DNA of 64,000 nucleotides. It comes from an uncultured Candidatus Saccharibacteria bacterium. GTDB lineage: Bacteria; Patescibacteriota; Minisyncoccia; Phycocordibacterales; CAZTPW01. The position numbers and the translations under genes were made by a program. Under the pieces are notes generated by a model. The model searched no databases and was not told the origin of the DNA. It worked only from the letters and a program-made list of their open reading frames with translations. Below are positions 24,375 to 61,216 of this stretch, piece by piece (position 1 is the stretch's first letter; every line of letters starts with the position of its first letter). The DNA lies in contig CAZTPW010000002.1 in the NCBI GenBank assembly GCA_964615725.1, forward strand, positions 5,656 through 69,655. Direction: 5' to 3'.

Positions 24375-24445
24375 CGCGGGGTAGAGAAGCAGTAACTCGC
24401 AAGGCTCATAACCTTGAGGCCTGGGTGCGATTCCCAGCCCCGCAA
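24375..24445 (+). tRNA. initiator tRNA-fMet, anticodon CAU
   Basis: Ends match E. coli tRNA-fMet: CGCGGGG.../...CCCCGCAA with a C1xA72 mismatch. A11:U24 in the D-stem. Anticodon loop CTCATAA. T-arm CTGGG-TGCGATT-CCCAG, with an unusual G at position 55. Confidence 0.75.
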
Positions 24446-24568
24446 CAAGAATTAGTTGGTGGATAGGGCGGTTATATGATATAAGACATATATATCAGCG
24501 TAGCTGATTTGGTTAGATAACGTCAGTGTGGTACATTTTCAAAGTCTTTTAAATAAGCCAATAAACAT

Positions 24569-24642
24569 GTCGGCGTAGCTCAGTTGGCTAGAGCGTGGGA
24601 CTCATAAGCCCAAGGTCGGAGGTTCGATTCCTCCCGCCGACA
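24569..24642 (+). tRNA. elongator tRNA-Met (anticodon CAU; a lysidine-type Ile2 cannot be excluded from sequence alone)
   Basis: Acceptor GTCGGCG/CGCCGAC. D-arm TAGCTCAGTTGGCTAGAGC. Anticodon loop CTCATAA. T-arm GGAGG-TTCGATT-CCTCC. Discriminator A. Confidence 0.8.
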
Positions 24643-24748
24643 CAACTTTTCGTATCTTTTTGCAGTGCTATACTTATAGTCAGAGTATTTAGGGTCGTTT
24701 GGCACGATCCGCTCTTCAGAAAACCAAACACTTAGCACCCACAAACGC

Positions 24749-25273
24749 ATGAAAACATTAGCTACAGCGCTCGTGTTGTTCGTACTCACGGTGAATGCTT
24801 GGACTCAGAGCACAGTCTCGAGCCTAGCTTCACTTTTTAACCCACTCACCGACATTCGTCAGGCGCCGCCCCCACGCTTCACCTTCAAGGCTTCGGCTCC
24901 GCAGCCAAGCCAGGTGACAAACCTTACCCAAGTCACCCTCTCCGGACCACTCCTGACTTCGAACGATCCGTACTGGAAAACCAATACGCGTATTGCTCGC
25001 GAAATCGCTGCGTCGCTCGAATTGCCAACCCGTGATAACTTCTGGGAACGCATCGAGATGAATTTGAATCAGAAAGATGCGAGTGGTCGGTCCGCTCAAG
25101 ACGTCTATTCTCAGCCCCTTTGGGGGTTCGGGAAGGGGAAGCACAAATACGACACATGCTTTGGAGCTGGTGGTGCCTGTCACTATGTTTCGAGCGTCAA
25201 TTACGTCTCAGAAGTTCCGGCGCGAACAGGTGACACGTACCGCCTCTTCGCTTTCTTCCGTCACACGTTCTGA
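24749..25273 (+). CDS. hypothetical secreted protein
   Basis: Signal peptide MKTLATALVLFVLTVNAWTQS. 174 aa. Terminator downstream. Confidence 0.5.
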   Translation: MKTLATALVLFVLTVNAWTQSTVSSLASLFNPLTDIRQAPPPRFTFKASAPQPSQVTNLTQVTLSGPLLTSNDPYWKTNTRIAREIAASLELPTRDNFWERIEMNLNQKDASGRSAQDVYSQPLWGFGKGKHKYDTCFGAGGACHYVSSVNYVSEVPARTGDTYRLFAFFRHTF

Positions 25274-25297
25274 GGAAGCAACGATGGTTTCGATAGT

Positions 25298-25325
25298 GGC
25301 GGCCCGCCGCGGGCCGCCTTTTTCG
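25298..25325 (+). terminator. rho-independent terminator
   Basis: ggcggcccgccgcgggccgcc hairpin followed by TTTTT. Confidence 0.75.
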
Positions 25326-25413
25326 TCCCCCAACTTTTTCGATAAAGAAGCAAATAAAGGACGATGGGGGAGGGATTGCTTTCAACCAAAAAATCTGATA
25401 CATTTCACCCCAT

Positions 25414-25487
25414 GCAGCCATAGCTCAATTGGCTAGAGCACTCCCCTGTCACGGGAGAGGTTGCCGGTTCAAGCCCGGTTGGCTGCG
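25414..25487 (+). tRNA. tRNA-Asp, anticodon GUC
   Basis: Acceptor GCAGCCA/TGGCTGC. Anticodon stem CTCCC/GGGAG with loop CTGTCAC. T-arm GCCGG-TTCAAGC-CCGGT. Discriminator G. Confidence 0.85.
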
Positions 25488-27172: not shown

Positions 27173-27247
27173 GCCAATGTAGCTCAGTTGGTAGAGCACG
27201 TCCATGGTAAGGACGAGGTCATCGGTTCAATCCCGATCATTGGCTCC
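27173..27247 (+). tRNA. tRNA-Thr, anticodon GGU
   Basis: Acceptor GCCAATG/CATTGGC. Anticodon stem CGTCC/GGACG with loop ATGGTAA. T-arm ATCGG-TTCAATC-CCGAT. Encoded CCA. A TTGAAA-N17-TATGAT promoter lies at ~27117-27146. Confidence 0.85.
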
Positions 27248-27257
27248 AGTAAATTGT

Positions 27258-27333
27258 GCCAAAGTAGCTCAGTTGGTAGAGCACAGCTTTCGTAAAGCTG
27301 GGGTCGCGAGTTCGATCCTCGCCTTTGGCTCCA
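27258..27333 (+). tRNA. tRNA-Thr, anticodon CGU
   Basis: Acceptor GCCAAAG/CTTTGGC. Anticodon stem CAGCT/AGCTG with loop TTCGTAA. T-arm GCGAG-TTCGATC-CTCGC. Encoded CCA. A hairpin plus T-run terminator lies at ~27360-27390. Confidence 0.85.
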
Positions 27334-38353: not shown

Positions 38354-38424
38354 TGCCGGATCGTCTAAAGGTAGGACACCGCTCTCTGAAAGCGGTAATT
38401 TTGGTTCGATTCCAAGTCCGGCAG
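38354..38424 (+). tRNA. tRNA-Gln, anticodon CUG
   Basis: U1-A72 acceptor (TGCCGGA/TCCGGCA) typical of bacterial tRNA-Gln. D-arm GTCT-AAAGGTA-GGAC. Anticodon stem CCGCT/AGCGG with loop CTCTGAA. T-arm TTTGG-TTCGATT-CCAAG. Discriminator G. Confidence 0.8.
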
Positions 38425-43861: not shown

Positions 43862-44275
43862 ATGGCAAAACTTAATCCATTCATTCGGTTTAATGGCGGA
43901 AAATGCGCAGAGGCGATGAACTTCTACAAAGGTATTATTGGCGGCGAGCTTTATTTCATGCCCGTCAAAGGGAGTGTAATGGAGAAAGACATGCCGGCAG
44001 ACAAGCAGGATTTGATCATGCATTCTTCTCTTACAAAAGATACTTGGACGCTTATCGGCTCTGATATGATGCGAGACACTGCAACAATCGGCGACCATAT
44101 GGGTGTGGCATACGAGGCAGAGACTGTAGAGGAAGGGCAGGGGGTGTTTGCAAAACTCTCAGAAGGTGGAGAAATCTTTATGCCCTTCGAGAAGCAGTTC
44201 TGGGGTACAATGTTTGGTCTTGTGACTGACAAGTATGGGGTAGAGTGGATGGTGACGTGTATTAAAACAATCTAA
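43862..44275 (+). CDS. VOC-family (PhnB-like) protein, paralog of 6260..6685
   Basis: LNPFIRFNGGKCAEAMNFYKGIIGGEL ... YGVEWMV; the same fold signature as the earlier gene. Confidence 0.7.
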   Translation: MAKLNPFIRFNGGKCAEAMNFYKGIIGGELYFMPVKGSVMEKDMPADKQDLIMHSSLTKDTWTLIGSDMMRDTATIGDHMGVAYEAETVEEGQGVFAKLSEGGEIFMPFEKQFWGTMFGLVTDKYGVEWMVTCIKTI

Positions 44276-44293
44276 CCTCGGTACTTTAGCTTC

Positions 44294-44854
44294 TTGAGCA
44301 TGAAGATTTCTATTGTTCGACACGGTGAAACTGACTTAAACAGAGCAAAAAGACTCATGGGGCAGCGTATAGATGAACCTTTGAATGAGGAGGGTATACG
44401 ACAGGCTGAGAGTCTTGCCCTGAATATTAATGATCACGAATTTGATCTCATCCTAACCTCTCCATTACAAAGGGCATATCAAACGGCTACAATCATCTCT
44501 CAAAAAACCCGCACACCAGTCATTAAAAAACAGGATCTCATTGAACGTGACTTCGGAAGTCTTACAGGAAAGACTTGGGAAGAAATGGATCAGCAAGTCT
44601 CCGCAGATGCAATCGACTTTAAGAAAACTGACCTCGATCAAAAATATGACTATCGTCCTTATGGTGGCGAATGTATTGACGATGTGAAGAAGAGATTCTC
44701 GAACTTCATTAAAGAAATAAAGAAGGATTACTCAGATAAGCGAGTTCTCGTAATTGCCCACGGTGGAATTATAAAAGTAGCGAATCTTGTTTTAAAAACA
44801 GAAATACTTGATCAAACCCCAGATAATATGACAGTTCATGAGTTTGAGATTTAG
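44294..44854 (+). CDS. histidine phosphatase family protein (phosphoglycerate-mutase-like)
   Basis: RHG catalytic motif at the N-terminus (ISIVRHGETDLN). 186 aa. Confidence 0.8.
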   Translation: MSMKISIVRHGETDLNRAKRLMGQRIDEPLNEEGIRQAESLALNINDHEFDLILTSPLQRAYQTATIISQKTRTPVIKKQDLIERDFGSLTGKTWEEMDQQVSADAIDFKKTDLDQKYDYRPYGGECIDDVKKRFSNFIKEIKKDYSDKRVLVIAHGGIIKVANLVLKTEILDQTPDNMTVHEFEI

Positions 44855-44877
44855 GTAACCATCATTTCAATAAAAAA

Positions 44878-44902
44878 GAGATCGAACAACATTCGATCTC
44901 TT
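44878..44902. terminator. bidirectional terminator between convergent genes
   Basis: gagatcgaa-caaca-ttcgatctc hairpin flanked by an A-run upstream and a T-rich tract downstream. Serves the plus-strand phosphatase gene and the minus-strand MFS gene. Confidence 0.7.
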
Positions 44903-44917
44903 GTGAGTTTATCAATC

Positions 44918-46093
44918 CTATTTTTTCCAAACGATCAGCGCACCTAGGATGAGTGCCGCGCCAGAGAAGATCCACGCAGTACTGATGCTTGTAGATTCCG
45001 CGAGTGCTCCACTTATGAGGAGGCCGAGCGCGCCACCGATATGTGGAGCGATGGAGCAGAACGACGATATGGTGGCGCGCTCATGCGACGGAATCCGATC
45101 GTGCAAGTAACTTGTTATAAGTGGCCCCCAACATCCTCTTCCAGCCTCATGAAGCAAAAAGAATGTCAGTGCCCACCCAAAGCTCGGAGCCAGCGCCGAA
45201 GCAATGACTGTTGCACCAACGTAGCACTGCACCGAAATGATCCATCCACGCTCTTTACCATGGCTTTTCACACGAGCAATGAAGACGTTTCCAAGAGCGA
45301 GCGCTGCCATCATAGTGACAAAGACATACCCGTAATGAACCTCCTTCACGCCATGGCTTTTGAAAAATGGTTGCCAGAACATGTTGAGTGCCATTACTGA
45401 GTAGATTTGAATTCCGCTGATGATGAGGATGAAGCGCACTGCCTTGTCATGAATTGCATAATGAATACTCGAGGTGGCAATCGCTTTCATTGCATGCCAT
45501 CCATTGTTCCAAGAGACATCTTGTTTTTTGAAGTATTCTTCTCGCATGACTGACCATGCAATACATGCGGTGGTTATCATTACAAACCCCGCAATGATCC
45601 ACGGCAGAGAAAGGCTCACTGCCATCAGGTAGGAACCCGAGACAGCACCAATTCCGCTCCCGATTTTGCAGATCAATGCATTTTTGGCGAAGATCGGTTT
45701 GAGATCTCCGTCGTGACCGTGGTGTTTCATACTGTCTACGAACCAAGCCTGGAAGGCTCCACTCATAAACGTACAGCCAATCCCGCCAATTACTTCAGCG
45801 AGGATGAAGCCATAGAAACTCGATGAGAGTCCATAGACAAACATACTCACCGCCAGGATCGCACACGAGATCACGAAGGACTTCTTCCTTCCGAATAGGT
45901 CTGCGAAAGCTCCTGTTGGTATTTCACAGACGAAGAGGGTAAGGAAGAAAGTGGCATTGACCACGTTGATCTGAAAGAGGTTGAGGCCGCTTTTCATGAG
46001 GTAGGTGGAGTAGATTGCCGCGATGAGGTCCATACCTGCCGCACTGAAGAGGAAGGAAAGGAGCATATACTGACGAACGATTCGTTTCTGCAT
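44918..46093 (-). CDS. MFS transporter
   Basis: 391 aa, ~12 TM helices. MFS signature around GRKKSFVISCAILAVS. Confidence 0.8.
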   Translation of the reverse strand: MQKRIVRQYMLLSFLFSAAGMDLIAAIYSTYLMKSGLNLFQINVVNATFFLTLFVCEIPTGAFADLFGRKKSFVISCAILAVSMFVYGLSSSFYGFILAEVIGGIGCTFMSGAFQAWFVDSMKHHGHDGDLKPIFAKNALICKIGSGIGAVSGSYLMAVSLSLPWIIAGFVMITTACIAWSVMREEYFKKQDVSWNNGWHAMKAIATSSIHYAIHDKAVRFILIISGIQIYSVMALNMFWQPFFKSHGVKEVHYGYVFVTMMAALALGNVFIARVKSHGKERGWIISVQCYVGATVIASALAPSFGWALTFFLLHEAGRGCWGPLITSYLHDRIPSHERATISSFCSIAPHIGGALGLLISGALAESTSISTAWIFSGAALILGALIVWKK

Positions 46094-46150
46094 AGGAGTA
46101 GTATTGATTTGTTAAGGAACTATTTCCCTGGACGAGGGAATGAGGAAAAG

Positions 46151-46375
46151 AAAAATCCCGACTTTCGTCCAGTCGGGATTTTTCTTCAAAGAATAGATGA
46201 TAGGAAATTAACCCTTCATAGAACAAGAACAATCACGACTAGGCGCAAGATACGCACATGGTGTATACGCAGAAAGAGATCCCTGAACGATAGTTCGGGC
46301 CTTTTTCCAGATATGCGTGATGTTCTTTGTGTTGTTCACGTGTAAAATAATAGCTTATTTGAGCCATTCTGTCAA
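46151..46375 (-). promoter_or_regulatory. long 5' leader of the MFS gene: strong sigma70 promoter plus intrinsic terminator (attenuator/riboswitch candidate)
   Basis: On the minus strand: TTGACA (complement of 46370-46375), a 17-nt spacer and TATTAT (46347-46352). About 150 nt downstream lies AAAAATCCCGACT-GGACGAAAG-TCGGGATTTTTCTTTT (46151-46186), a perfect intrinsic terminator ~60 nt before the MFS ATG. A second hairpin is at 46292-46320. Tiny ORFs MCVSCA* and MKG* lie in the leader. Confidence 0.5.
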
Positions 46376-46454
46376 TACTTTCCCATTTTAATCCGCTTTG
46401 CTACCATAGTGGGGTCTTATCAATAACGGGGCAATGCCCATAATTTTTTAAAAC

Positions 46455-46709
46455 ATGCCAAAAGCAAATTCCGCATTCATGAAACCAATGACCATCAGCG
46501 CTGATCTCGCTCCTGTCGTAGGAAAGGGTCCAATGCCTCGATCAGAAGTCGTAAAGGCTCTCTGGGTCTATATCAAGAAGAACAATCTCCAGGATCCAAA
46601 GAACAAGCGAAACATCAATGCTGATGCTACCTTGAAGAAGGTTTTCGGCGGAAAGGCTACTGTTACTATGTTTGAAATGACAAAGCTCGTTTCAAAACAC
46701 CTCTCATAA
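46455..46709 (+). CDS. SWIB/MDM2 domain protein
   Basis: 84 aa. RSEVVKALWVYIKKNNLQDPKNKRNINADATLKKVFG matches the SWIB core. Confidence 0.7.
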   Translation: MPKANSAFMKPMTISADLAPVVGKGPMPRSEVVKALWVYIKKNNLQDPKNKRNINADATLKKVFGGKATVTMFEMTKLVSKHLS

Positions 46710-46732
46710 GGAATCGCCAACCCTGGAAGACA

Positions 46733-46764
46733 AAAACGCCCATAAGAGGGCGTTTTTGTTTTGT
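46733..46764 (+). terminator. rho-independent terminator
   Basis: aaaacgccc-ataagag-ggcgtttt followed by tgttttg. Confidence 0.8.
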
Positions 46765-46807
46765 GTTATCCACGCCACAAAATACTCAGGTTTGGTATAC
46801 TAGCACC

Positions 46808-47434
46808 ATGAATCATCCATTGAAAAAAGCACTTGTAGTCCTTCTCGTCATTGTGGTAGGGCTGGTATTTTATTCATTTATAGCAAAATACACCGCGCTT
46901 CAGCTTCCTGATTTCTCATTCCAAAAATCTGAAACAGAGATTATTGAAATGATGGGGAATCGTGCCGTAAAAGCTCTCAAAAATCGAGATTCAAAGACGC
47001 TCGCTCTCATGATGCATCCTCAAGTACACCTTCGATTCTCACCCTTCCCATCATTCAGTGCAGATTCCATCTCATTTTCACAAGACGAAGTCCAGAAGCT
47101 TTTTGCTGACAACCACAAGTATCTCTGGGGCTACACCGACGGCAAGGGCGATCCGATTCTTATGACGCCTCAGGAATATTACACCTCATATCTCTATGCC
47201 GTTGATTTTTCAAACGCACCTCAGAAATATTTCGCCCAACCCCAAACCTCTCGTGGCAACAATGTAAATACCATCCTCCAAACATTCCCCGGAGCGCGTG
47301 TGGCAGAATTCTATTTCCCTGGATTCAATCCAGAATATGAAGGTATGGATTGGAAGAGTCTTCTCATCATCTTTGCTCCGTCGGGCGGTAAATGGTTCCT
47401 CGTCGGTATTGCCAACAATCAGTGGGGGATTTAA
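46808..47434 (+). CDS. hypothetical membrane-anchored protein
   Basis: Start at the ATG at 46808 (MNHPLKKALVVLLVIVVGLVFY...). ~208 aa. Confidence 0.5.
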   Translation: MNHPLKKALVVLLVIVVGLVFYSFIAKYTALQLPDFSFQKSETEIIEMMGNRAVKALKNRDSKTLALMMHPQVHLRFSPFPSFSADSISFSQDEVQKLFADNHKYLWGYTDGKGDPILMTPQEYYTSYLYAVDFSNAPQKYFAQPQTSRGNNVNTILQTFPGARVAEFYFPGFNPEYEGMDWKSLLIIFAPSGGKWFLVGIANNQWGI

Positions 47435-47450
47435 TAGCTCGTATATTTCT

Positions 47451-47963
47451 ATGAAAAAGAAGCATTTTCAATCAAAAAAACTTCAGTCATTCATCGCTTT
47501 GTGTGTCCTCGCAACAGTGATTTGGATAATTCCTTTCTTTATTGATCATACCCAGCCAGCCCCCGACCGACTTTGGTATATGCCAGGTGGACTTCTTACC
47601 AACACTTCGTGGGATATCTATGAAGTCCGTGGCGCCGGAGCACATTATTCTATCGTCGTACCAGGCAAGACACCAAAGCCACAGTTTTCACTTTCATTCG
47701 AAAAGGACAAGCTCACCGGCACGATGTGTAACATCTTCAGTGGCCCTTATACCTTCAACGGTATGGCGGTGCGCGCAGAGCCAATTACAAGCACAAAGCG
47801 TGCATGTATCAATGGCGGTCTCATGGAGGCAGAGCAAGCACTCTTTACAGCACTTTCTTCAGGTTCGCAGTACGCAATCATCGGTAACAAGCTCGAAATC
47901 ATTGATGTGAAAAACGATATTCATATCGTCATGATGAAAAAGCAGGGTGAGGATAAGCGCTAA
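47451..47963 (+). CDS. META domain (HslJ-like) protein, membrane-anchored
   Basis: Start trimmed to the ATG at 47451 (MKKKHFQSKKLQSFIALCVLATVIWIIPFF). The C-terminal META pattern is LTGTMCNIFSGPYTFNG...ACINGGLMEAEQALFTALSS. Confidence 0.6.
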   Translation: MKKKHFQSKKLQSFIALCVLATVIWIIPFFIDHTQPAPDRLWYMPGGLLTNTSWDIYEVRGAGAHYSIVVPGKTPKPQFSLSFEKDKLTGTMCNIFSGPYTFNGMAVRAEPITSTKRACINGGLMEAEQALFTALSSGSQYAIIGNKLEIIDVKNDIHIVMMKKQGEDKR

Positions 47964-48652
47964 GCAACAATATCACCTACCTCTATACGATAGCCACGTC
48001 CTGGTACATTGTGGATGAGCTTGGGCTCTCCTTTACGCTCTATTTTTCGTCGGAGATTGAGAATGTGAGACTCTAGGGTGTTTGAATAAGGATCATCTTC
48101 TTTGTTCCATACATATTCCATCATCATTCCTCGCGAGACCACATGACCGGCGTGACGCATAAGGTATTCGAGAAGAGAAAACTCTTTCTTGGTGAGATGG
48201 ATCGGGGTATTTGCACGAGATACTTTCATACTTCCGGAATCAAGCTTGAGGTCGCCGATTGTATAAACAGAGTCCTGGAGTGCCTTTGGTCTTCGGAGAA
48301 TAGCTTTCATTCTCACAAGAAGCTCCTCGAGGGCGTAAGGTTTGCAGATATAGTCATCTGCGCCAGCATTGAAGAGAGATAGCTTGTCGCCAAGCTCGTG
48401 CTGGACGGTTGTGACAAGGATCGGAACTGTCTTTCCTGATGCGCGAATTTCCCGGCAGATCTCTAGACCGCTTTTCTTAGGCAAAATATTATCAAGGATA
48501 ATCACATCAAAATTTTCTGTCCGAGCAACATACGAACCTTTTTCGCCATCTGCGGTAGCGGTAATAGTATGGCACTCAGCTTCGAGTGCTCGTTTGAGAA
48601 AGTCTCGAACATCAATATCATCCTCGACGATCAGTATCCGCATAGGGTTCAT
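47960..48652 (-). CDS. OmpR-family response regulator (orphan; no adjacent histidine kinase)
   Basis: Receiver domain (RILIVEDD...ILDNILP) plus a winged-helix trans_reg_C domain (LTKKEFSLLEYLM...VPGRGYRI). Confidence 0.85.
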   Translation of the reverse strand: MNPMRILIVEDDIDVRDFLKRALEAECHTITATADGEKGSYVARTENFDVIILDNILPKKSGLEICREIRASGKTVPILVTTVQHELGDKLSLFNAGADDYICKPYALEELLVRMKAILRRPKALQDSVYTIGDLKLDSGSMKVSRANTPIHLTKKEFSLLEYLMRHAGHVVSRGMMMEYVWNKEDDPYSNTLESHILNLRRKIERKGEPKLIHNVPGRGYRIEVGDIVA

Positions 48653-57856: not shown

Positions 57857-58163
57857 AATGCACGAGTCAAAACAGCCAGCATTTGAGTCATTTTCTGTCG
57901 ACCTATTTTACAGAAAAGAAATTTTGTTTCGCGCTCGATTGTCCACAGGAATTTTTTAAAAAAAATTTCAATGCGAGGAGTAAAATAATGATTAGGAAGT
58001 TCTCTCGGCATATCGATGCCGGGTTTTTATTCCGACAAACAAGGGTTGTGTGAATGTGTCGTGTATTCACCACATCTCGAGGATGTTGGAACGAGGGTCT
58101 GAAGCCCTTATTCATCAAATTATTCATAAATGTGTATTGCAAGAGAGGCACTCACCGTTCATT

Positions 58164-60878: not shown

Positions 60879-60884
60879 CATATG

Positions 60885-61216
60885 CTTTGTATCTATAAGC
60901 CGAATTTTGTACTCGCAAAAGCGATGATCATTTATCTGGGCCAGCCGTTACCGTCTGGCTCAAGCGGCACTCTTCATCACCGAAGCGATGAAGCACGACC
61001 TTGCACGTGGGTAAGAATTTAGCCGTTGCACCCTCCGTATTGCTACGAAGACTCGTCTCTGTTCGCATCTCTTGGATTGCTCCAGACGGGCGTTACCCGC
61101 TACCTTGCTGATTCTGTGTTGCCACAGAGTTCACGTGTTCGGACTTTCCTCACGAAAGATAGGGAACTCGCTTGGGGCAAGCTATGTCTCACGCGCGATC
61201 ATCCAATACAAAGACC
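60885..61216 (-). ncRNA. rnpB: RNase P RNA (bacterial type A)
   Basis: The minus-strand read contains the P4 5' strand GAGGAAAGTCCGAAC. It also has CAGCAAGGTAGCGGGTAACGCCCGTCTGGAGCAATCC (compare the E. coli M1 segment GGTAACGCCTGGG). The P4 3' strand reads GGCCCAGATAAATGATCATCGC...ACAAAATTCGGCTTA (compare GGCCTAGATGAATGA...ACAGAACCCGGCTTA). P1 pairing joins GGGTCTTTGTAT (5') with ATACAAAG (3'). Length ~330 nt. Confidence 0.9.

Follow-up and report, generated by a model that had tools for sequence, protein, structure and literature searches.

In the bmrB-bmrCD locus of Bacillus subtilis, a small open reading frame (ORF) lies right before the gene of a multidrug transporter, and alternative stem-loops, including an intrinsic terminator, can form in the RNA. 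Induction depends on translation of the ORF and is brought about by antibiotics directed at protein synthesis (PMC4191407). A comparable arrangement is predicted on the minus strand of a 64,000-nucleotide (nt) stretch of DNA from an uncultured Candidatus Saccharibacteria bacterium (Patescibacteriota; assembly GCA_964615725.1, contig CAZTPW010000002.1, positions 5,656 to 69,655), which is called the window below. Here, a leader containing an upstream ORF (uORF) of 43 codons precedes the gene of a transporter of the major facilitator superfamily (MFS). The long bmrB ORF is nearer to this uORF than are the amino-acid leaders of 14-20 codons. However, the two have no sequence similarity, and bmrB serves an ABC transporter in a Firmicute host. 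Its terminator is inside the coding region, whereas here it lies 20-30 nt past the stop codon.

The attenuators trpL, hisL, pheL, thrL, leuL and ilvL resemble this leader in their four-segment logic, in the translation of a leader peptide and in that the sequence of this peptide is only weakly selected. The trpL-type leaders have runs of codons cognate to the pathway and a 14-30-codon ORF led by a Shine-Dalgarno sequence, and they control biosynthetic operons. In the present leaders, by contrast, the ORF is leaderless by prediction and has 41-51 codons, a distance of 84-105 nt, bridged by two hairpins, separates segments 1 and 2, an enrichment in Asn is the only codon bias, and the targets are transporters and an acetyltransferase. 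A uORF in front of an efflux or resistance determinant, at which stalling leads to read-through of a premature terminator, is known from mef(E)/mel (PMC4335068), erm, cat, toiL (PMC12121999) and whiB7 (10.1101/2023.06.02.543512). The peptides of these systems are unrelated to the one described here and mostly shorter, and several of the systems work by way of translation or Rho and not of an intrinsic terminator. The mycobacterial whiB7 sensor controls a transcription factor, whereas here every target gene has its own copy of the sensor. The WhiB7 regulon couples the MFS pump Tap with the GNAT acetyltransferase Eis, a combination that resembles the MFS and GNAT genes found here. The mycobacterial polycysteine uORFs are, as is proposed for this leader, leaderless small ORFs at the transcription start that act as sensors in cis. 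They differ in being Cys-rich and cysteine-responsive, and a four-segment switch with an intrinsic terminator is not their hallmark.

The leader is interpreted as a ribosome-mediated transcription attenuator of the trp-leader/bmrB type. The core of this reading, a translated uORF combined with a terminator/antiterminator switch that is read by the ribosome, is proposed with good confidence from the conservation described below. The reading as a whole, in which the signal is translation slowed by a cationic toxic compound, is on balance probable. Such a mechanism would be of a known kind. The leader itself, as judged by its sequence, is distinct: it is unrelated to the described ones, it is predicted to be leaderless, its long ORF is folded into a three-way junction and it has a fifth segment. 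Gene regulation in Patescibacteria, which belong to the Candidate Phyla Radiation (CPR), has hardly been charted, and the leader has no Rfam model. No literature was found that links Patescibacteria to leader peptides, attenuation or natural riboswitches. As no cis-regulatory switch of CPR bacteria was found described, the leader may be the first to be defined there.

Layout of the leader and its alternative helices

An earlier examination of the same DNA, made from the letters alone (the sequence-only reading), had described a consensus promoter, a structured leader of about 240 nt and a perfect intrinsic terminator in front of the MFS gene. The promoter is present on the minus strand where it had been placed (Table 1). 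It scores 11 of 12 and is the top promoter-like site within 44000-48000. It faces the MFS gene and does not serve a divergent transcript of the opposite strand, an objection that the sequence-only reading had itself raised; the divergent SWIB gene on the plus strand needs a promoter of its own. Of the 27 leaders scored, 22 have TTGACA in its exact form as the -35 box, and most have this box, a spacer of 16-18 nt (usually 17) and a -10 box TAnnnT at the same position.

The terminator hairpin is situated about 160-195 nt downstream of the promoter. RNAfold gives it a perfect stem of 17 bp, followed by the U-tract (with UUUUUCUUUU), as had been described. Two distances were slightly off. The hairpin does precede the MFS start codon, but the end of its U-tract is 52 nt, not about 60 nt, from the ATG at 46093, and the length of the leader is now estimated at about 247 nt. 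The 28-nt core of the hairpin occurs once in the window and was matched in none of 100 shuffles, with up to 3 mismatches allowed; no further copies of the hairpin were found in the window and 75 loci. The 201 nt between 46340 and 46140 fold with -64.1 kcal/mol, which corresponds to z = -4.8 against dinucleotide shuffles. A simple terminator scan overlooked the hairpin, and its limit on loop length is probably to blame.

Table 1. Features of the leader and the adjoining genes; positions are those of the window
Feature	Position	Strand	Description
SWIB/MDM2-domain protein	46455-46709	plus	84 amino acids; divergent neighbour
Promoter, sigma-70 type	46347-46375	minus	TTGACA 46375-46370, 17-nt spacer, TATTAT 46352-46347
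uORF (putative leader peptide)	46208-46339	minus	GTG at 46339, 43 codons and TAA; MNNTKNITHIWKKARTIVQGSLSAYTPCAYLAPSRDCSCSMKG
Segment 1	46316-46325	minus	GAACAUCACG; codons 6-8, N-I-T; 5' strand of anti-antiterminator 1:2
Hairpins Pa and Pb	46251-46301	minus	Pa 46301-46278, Pb 46271-46251; inside the ORF; three-way junction with helix 1:2
Segment 2	46226-46243	minus	CCUAGUCGUGAUUGUUCU; codons 33-38, P-S-R-D-C-S; partner is segment 1 or segment 3
Terminator hairpin	46146-46187	minus	GAAGAAAAAUCCCGACU-GGACGAA-AGUCGGGAUUUUUCUUUU
Segment 3	46171-46187	minus	GAAGAAAAAUCCCGACU; 5' arm of terminator and 3' strand of antiterminator
Terminator loop	46164-46170	minus	GGACGAA; followed by segment 4
Segment 4	46146-46163	minus	AGUCGGGAUUUUU, with U-tract CUUUU; 3' arm of terminator
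Segment 5	46128-46141	minus	AUUCCCUCGUCCAG; downstream of U-tract; partners are loop CUGGACG and segment 4 GGGAU
Downstream motif	46106-46122	minus	UAGUUCCUUAACAAAUC; consensus UAGUUCnUUGAMAAC; 25-35 nt ahead of the start codon of the regulated gene
MFS transporter	44918-46093	minus	391 amino acids; PF07690, E 4.6e-33

The region between promoter and terminator, earlier taken for an aptamer, is to all appearances of its sequence a translated ORF that fills nearly the whole interval. The two tiny leader ORFs of the sequence-only reading exist but have no relevance. One (MCVSCA) is in another frame, the other (MKG) is the in-frame tail of the 43-codon ORF, and by picking them the longer, GTG-initiated ORF was overlooked. 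The GTG is situated 7 nt past the -10 box, and the mRNA is therefore probably leaderless; the stop codon is at 46210-46208. To our knowledge, no leaderless mRNA has been described for bmrB. In the homologous leaders an ATG or GTG opens an ORF of 41-51 codons, and from the end of this ORF it is 27-40 nt to the hairpin's conserved CCCGAC core. Their start codon is 5-9 nt past the -10 box in 25 of the 27 scored leaders and 6-7 nt past it in 21. In one metagenome locus, L055, the uORF is shortened to 30 codons and segment 1 is apparently upstream of its ATG.

The spacing of the two segments inside the ORF is quantized. The distance between segments 1 and 2 is 84, 87, 90, 93, 99 or 105 nt, a multiple of three in all 26 leaders, whereas in three non-coding spacers of the same leaders every residue class is populated (10/7/9, 5/6/15 and 9/10/7). 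The reading frame of the uORF is, by this sequence criterion, under selection. The entropies of the three codon positions over 42 leaders are nearly flat (1.11, 1.04 and 1.17), and the best-conserved residues, N-I-T-N and S-R-D-V-S, lie over RNA segments 1 and 2, in which third positions are equally invariant. Thus the frame is selected and the peptide sequence only weakly so, as is typical of regulatory leader peptides. Neither Pfam nor NCBIfam gives a match to the peptide. It has no homologues in a word-indexed search of 5.8 billion clustered proteins or in an exhaustive phmmer search of 1.84 billion cluster representatives, and no sequence kinship with the antibiotic-sensing peptides Erm, Cat, Mef, BmrB and ToiL was detected in the searched databases. 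The locus calls for caution in annotation: an ORF of 43 codons without a database homologue was apparently left uncalled, and the raw leader resembles a riboswitch.

Segment 2 can pair with segment 1 or with segment 3, and segment 3 can pair with segment 2 or with segment 4. When RNAalifold was applied to a MAFFT alignment, only the terminator and a 4-bp helix were recovered, because the variable hairpins were not aligned by structure; the helices were therefore set by hand and their pairs counted. At slid registers the background for the three helices is 30-56% paired. Helix 3:4, the terminator, is paired to 94% over 26 leaders and its U-tract is conserved. Helix 1:2 is paired to 85-88% over the 26 leaders, with compensatory changes at two positions (CG 13/UA 7 and AU 16/GC 3), and it belongs to the minimum free energy (MFE) fold of the window leader and of divergent leaders. 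Helix 2:3, of 17 nt, is paired to 79-85%, compared to 34-54% at a slid register. Of the 15 positions aligned in its consensus, AGUCGUGAUGUUUCU against AGAAAAAUCCCGACU, 13 pair and two are mismatches that are conserved; two more pairs extend into the loop. An alignment-free calculation supports this helix, in that the 2:3 duplex beats dinucleotide shuffles in 14 of 16 leaders, divergent ones included (z -2.7 to -5.5). Two divergent loci retain the helix with other sequences, as paired by eye: AGCCGAGACAAUUU / AAAUUGUCCCGGCU in L028 and AGCCAAGACG..CUCAAU / AUUGAGCGUCUCGGCU in L031.

The MFE fold of the full leader contains 1:2 and 3:4, whereas nascent RNA that lacks segment 4 is predicted to fold into 2:3. 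This switch was obtained by folding in the window leader and in most of the divergent leaders that were folded. The mutually exclusive terminator (3:4) and antiterminator (2:3) that the sequence-only reading had suggested looking for with RNAfold are thus found among the predicted folds, and the terminator is very probably conditional.

Hairpins Pa and Pb, folded for each sequence separately, are present in most of the 26 leaders. Pa is the steadier of the two; Pb is hypervariable in length and sequence. Their stems differ between leaders (for example CCGCAG/CUGCGG, CACAG/CUGUG and CCACC/GGUGG). The near-invariance of the terminator hairpin is explained by its having to pair with segments 2, 4 and 5.

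Segment 5 is the last of these partners. Its pairing with the terminator loop is kept at 97%, and three of the four pairs covary (GC/AU, AU/GC and CG/UA). The pairing of GGGAU in segment 4 with AUCCC in segment 5 is kept at 90%, and masking of segment 3 makes 4:5 the predicted fold. In the models, segment 5 takes part either in a pseudoknot or in a hairpin 4:5 that is an alternative to the terminator. It is made only after the decision on termination. A function as a translational switch was rejected, since the ribosome-binding site of the MFS gene is alike in predicted accessibility in both conformers (0.68 vs 0.69). The motif that lies between segment 5 and the MFS gene is common to the upstream regions of MFS-A, MFS-B and GNAT genes. 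No pairing partner was found for it, and its TTGACA-like part was discarded as a -35 box, there being no -10 box behind it in any locus on inspection by eye.

Distribution of the leader and the genes it precedes

A scan of species-representative genomes based on an MFS alignment gave 42 loci. With nhmmer the leader was found directly upstream of the MFS gene in 25 genome loci (E 3e-3 to 7e-16, 24 of them at 6e-6 or below), and a scan of metagenomes with the hairpin pattern added 33 more loci. The leader precedes every recovered Patescibacteria MFS orthologue that has enough upstream sequence. The hairpin DNA is 95-100% identical in many loci, although the encoded MFS proteins are only 47-57% identical. 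The comparison of upstream regions of orthologous genes that had been proposed as a check therefore turned out in favour of a functional leader: promoter, hairpin and spacing are conserved, and compensatory pairs are present. Actinobacterial MFS homologues (26-31% identity) have no comparable leader. Within about 500 kb of loci, the leader always stands directly before one of three gene families and nowhere else.

The first of these families is that of the window transporter, the nearest homologues of which (57% identity) come from metagenome-assembled genomes (MAGs) of Paceibacterota. Its scores against the NCBIfam models TetA(P), Tet(40) and Tap (96, 75 and 27 bits) compare to cut-offs of 750, 800 and 625, and that for HP1165 is also far below its cut-off. 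On this sequence evidence, the assignment to the MFS_1 superfamily alone holds. Before the start codon of this gene (46091-46105, minus strand; …AAUACUACUCCUAUG) no Shine-Dalgarno sequence can be recognised, whereas AGGAG or AAGGA stands there in most orthologues. The second family, MFS-B, is 31-36% identical to the window protein and follows leaders of the same type at five metagenome loci. The third is a GNAT protein (Acetyltransf_3) of 190-198 residues, found behind the same leader in six metagenome loci (L047, L053, L055, L056, L072 and L073). Its matches in the Protein Data Bank are mostly spermidine or diamine N-acetyltransferases, the best ones included (best E 4e-10). Against PRK15130 it reaches 42-45 bits, compared to a cut-off of 218, and the nearest NCBIfam models, PseH, SpeG, AAC(6') and RimJ/L, are each below cut-off.

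A second subfamily of leaders (B) uses the same terminator platform and was found in L050, L063, L064, L070, L071 and L047/L053. Its peptide has the consensus …[QE][MV]N…G[AT]F.V[SA]..D…S..[MI]CVNP… up to the stop codon, and the 3' end of its ORF holds a second AAAUCCC copy of segment 3. Near-identical leaders of this subfamily precede an MFS gene in L070/L071 and a GNAT gene in L047/L053. In L032 (Falkowbacteria) and L031, which have MFS homologues of 34-38% identity, there is still a promoter-proximal ORF of 35-49 codons, but the terminator behind it is another one. Helices 1:2 and 2:3 remain as predicted alternatives, and the design of the attenuator therefore appears to be older than the sequence of the hairpin.

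Taken at face value, the leader would be a widely conserved cis switch, and the small set of genes under it, from two MFS families and a SpeG-like acetyltransferase family, points to inducible detoxification in organisms of minimal genome. For Patescibacteria, according to a recent perspective, a system of inducible expression has still to be developed (PMC11665869). The native promoter-attenuator cassette of about 280 nt could serve as such a system, given its inducer.

Proposed mechanism, its likely signal and the alternatives

In the following scheme we infer where transcription starts, that it actually terminates or reads through, how it is coupled to translation and what the signal is; the promoter, the frame, the helices with their conservation and covariation and the downstream genes are what was computed. 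Transcription would start at or beside the GTG at 46339, so that a ribosome could load as soon as the 5' end emerges. Segment 1 and segment 2, encoded by codons 6-8 and 33-38, would close the three-way junction. A ribosome that stays abreast of RNA polymerase would be on or just past segment 2; helix 2:3 would be blocked and 3:4 would form, so that the gene is OFF at the basal level. From segment 2 it is 15 nt to the stop codon, which is 19-32 nt ahead of segment 3, so a terminating ribosome would sit between the two segments and exclude 2:3 sterically. With no ribosome on the ORF, 1:2 would form, then 3:4, and the gene would again be OFF. A ribosome delayed between the start codon and segment 2 would block 1:2; segment 2 would then capture segment 3, and the polymerase would read through into the gene (ON). 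The sensing window of about 33 codons is unusually long, and the leader therefore looks like a sensor of elongation rate and not of a single codon. No cluster of rare codons that could be a stall site was found in the window uORF, and stalling at rare codons was dropped.

Translation slowed by a toxic cation is considered the most likely signal because the same leader precedes the MFS families and the SpeG-like acetyltransferase. Candidate inducers would be a ribosome-targeting antibiotic, for example an aminoglycoside, or excess polyamine. The set of genes that share the leader suggests a detoxification regulon. An exporter together with an amine acetyltransferase is a known design of polyamine detoxification, represented by the MFS spermidine exporter Blt with the spermidine/spermine N-acetyltransferase BltD or SpeG (PMC11998418). 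The same gene families are paired here; a Blt/BltD-like function of the Patescibacteria proteins is suggested by distant similarity alone. The Blt system is under the control of a MerR-type activator, not of an attenuator. With regard to antibiotics, CPR genomes are reported to be rich in aminoglycoside-acetyltransferase-like genes (PMC8651080).

A bolder extension, offered as a speculation that is unlikely to be correct in full, is that the leader is a bacterial sensor of polyamines or polycations, made of the ribosome and a leaderless uORF, and thus a counterpart of the eukaryotic MAGDIS and AZIN1 uCC uORFs. With polyamine in excess, the ribosome would slow down or halt on the conserved peptide or on the junction, and export by the MFS protein and acetylation by the GNAT protein would thereby be turned on. 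If true, Patescibacteria, which are thought to depend on hosts for many metabolites, would have a dedicated cis-acting switch for polyamine homeostasis.

Several observations weigh against attenuation by slowed translation as set out above. The uORF contains no run of identical regulatory codons that would point to a signal. A GTG start codon is weaker than ATG in leaderless initiation in some bacteria. In a crude duplex test, helix 1:2 of the window leader is no better than shuffles (z -0.2). The nucleotides GAAUA, GGNUAU and CUUGCG of the three-way junction are conserved in an aptamer-like manner, beyond the need of a spacer. Segment 5 and the UAGUUCnUUGAMAAC motif are conserved and yet have no part in the attenuation model. 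Finally, the functional labels of the MFS and GNAT proteins depend on matches far below the curated cut-offs.

The same attenuator might respond to the charging of tRNA-Asn, with the ribosome stalling at Asn codons over segment 1. Asn makes up 24% of uORF residues 2-13, compared to 4.0% in the proteins of the window, a 6-fold enrichment. There are 1-5 Asn per leader in this interval, with at least two in 41 of 42 leaders, and the two Asn of N-I-T-N lie exactly over segment 1 in 81-93% of the leaders. Such a small number need not be an obstacle, as trpL functions with just two Trp codons. However, the conserved Asn codons double as nucleotides of helix 1:2, and their third positions covary with segment 2, so that RNA pairing alone can explain their conservation. 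A-rich 5' ends are in any case expected in leaderless mRNAs, and the leaders of subfamily B and of L028-L032 have one or two Asn only. The regulated genes, moreover, are efflux-like MFS transporters and an amine acetyltransferase and not genes of Asn synthesis or uptake. All this makes tRNA-Asn charging a rather unlikely signal.

Arrest of the nascent peptide in the exit tunnel, together with a small molecule such as a polyamine and in the manner of TnaC, SpeFL or MAGDIS, would stall the ribosome and drive antitermination. The peptide motifs N-I-T-N, W, P-Q, G-Y and L-A-S-x-R-D-V/I-S do recur over the 42 leaders, and L028 keeps S-R-D despite three synonymous third-position changes (AGC CGA GAC, by eye). 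The presence of a SpeG-like acetyltransferase in the regulon is also in keeping with it. R-D-[IV]-S has a likeness to D-I-S in MAGDIS, which is a lead and not a test. The flat codon-position entropies speak for another cause of this conservation. The invariant residues overlie segments 1 and 2 and vary no more at third codon positions than at the others (GAT in 42 of 42), which indicates selection at the level of RNA. Furthermore, subfamily B shares the platform although its peptide is another one (…MCVNP…), and the window peptide itself lacks P-Q and G-Y. Ligand-dependent arrest is accordingly considered improbable, somewhat more so than Asn sensing.

The sequence-only reading had left three explanations for conditional read-through: a riboswitch, a T-box-like element or peptide-mediated attenuation. 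The conserved antiterminator switch upholds the conditional part, and peptide-mediated attenuation is now favoured over the other two, for which no family match exists. The Infernal/Rfam check it had recommended agrees with its impression that the leader is unlike known riboswitch classes. At the gathering score no Rfam family matches the leader in the window and 20 orthologous loci, and at E<=10 the interval 45950-46550 yields only sub-threshold families of small RNA (sRNA), antisense RNA, snoRNA and miRNA and two cis-regulatory or leader families (11-25 bits); the three sub-threshold alignments shown are driven by the terminator hairpin. The T-box family (RF00230) gives no match at E<=10.

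A riboswitch would have the junction as its aptamer (P1 = 1:2, Pa and Pb), the 3' strand of P1 competing with the terminator and the ORF being incidental or secondary. The topology is indeed of the purine type, in that the three-way junction is closed by P1, the expression platform also makes use of segment 2 and the junction nucleotides are conserved; Pa and Pb covary, and the z-score of the leader fold (-4.8) fits a structured RNA. An aptamer of this kind would not account for a frame that is kept across six junction lengths or for a start codon at the predicted transcription start in almost all leaders. Besides the lack of an Rfam match, Pb is hypervariable. Moreover, stabilization of P1 by a ligand would shut the genes OFF, the opposite of what would be expected of efflux or detoxification genes. 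A riboswitch is thus quite improbable.

Slightly less probable again is an RNA-binding protein that recognizes the hairpin and its loop (CUGGACGAAAG) or the UAGUUCnUUGAMAAC motif and controls termination or the fate of the mRNA. It would give a reason for a hairpin that is 95-100% identical where the MFS proteins are about 50% identical, and for the conservation of segment 5 and the downstream motif, which is otherwise unexplained. The invariance of the hairpin is, however, accounted for by its three pairing partners, segments 2, 4 and 5. The loop varies (GGAC, GAAC, GGGC and GGAU) and covaries with segment 5, which indicates recognition of RNA by RNA and not by protein, and no conserved neighbouring regulator gene was found.

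A reading of the ORF as a stand-alone gene for a small protein or an sRNA, with a promoter of its own and a terminator that is perhaps leaky and sets stoichiometry, agrees with the anatomy of a strong promoter followed by a strong terminator, but is hardly credible given that no separate MFS promoter is seen in the 52 nt after the terminator, that the unit always directly precedes one of three gene families, that amino-acid selection is weak and that the conserved antiterminator would be left without a role. A 6S-like or free-standing sRNA, a candidate prompted by the rod-like fold, was rejected: there is no 6S match, and the region is, by prediction, translated.

Surroundings of the locus

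The SWIB protein encoded divergently from the leader is 88-93% identical across many Patescibacteria MAGs, an unusually strong conservation for the group. The closest homologues of both this protein (90-93% identity) and the MFS transporter are from MAGs of Paceibacterota, Minisyncoccia and other Patescibacteria. They place the window in a CPR bacterium, and a chlamydial origin, to which the SWIB gene might have pointed, was rejected on this ground. The SWIB, His_Phos and response-regulator genes that neighbour the leader in the window are not kept beside it in the other loci. Downstream, the MFS gene converges with a His_Phos_1 gene (44294-44854, plus strand). Between them, at 44876-44902, there is a 12-bp hairpin, AAGAGATCGAA-TGT-TTCGATCTCTT, with T-runs on both sides, which to judge from its sequence is probably a bidirectional terminator. 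The MFS gene would therefore be monocistronic.

Elsewhere in the window, an RNase P class A RNA is encoded at 60880-61214 on the minus strand (115.6 bits, gathering score 100), and there are seven tRNA genes, at 1465-1538, 24375-25487, 27173-27330 and 38354-38424. A relaxed hairpin pattern also picked out a terminator-like hairpin, TCTCGGCATATCGATGCCGGGTTTTT, at 58003 on the plus strand; its sequence is unrelated to that of the attenuator.

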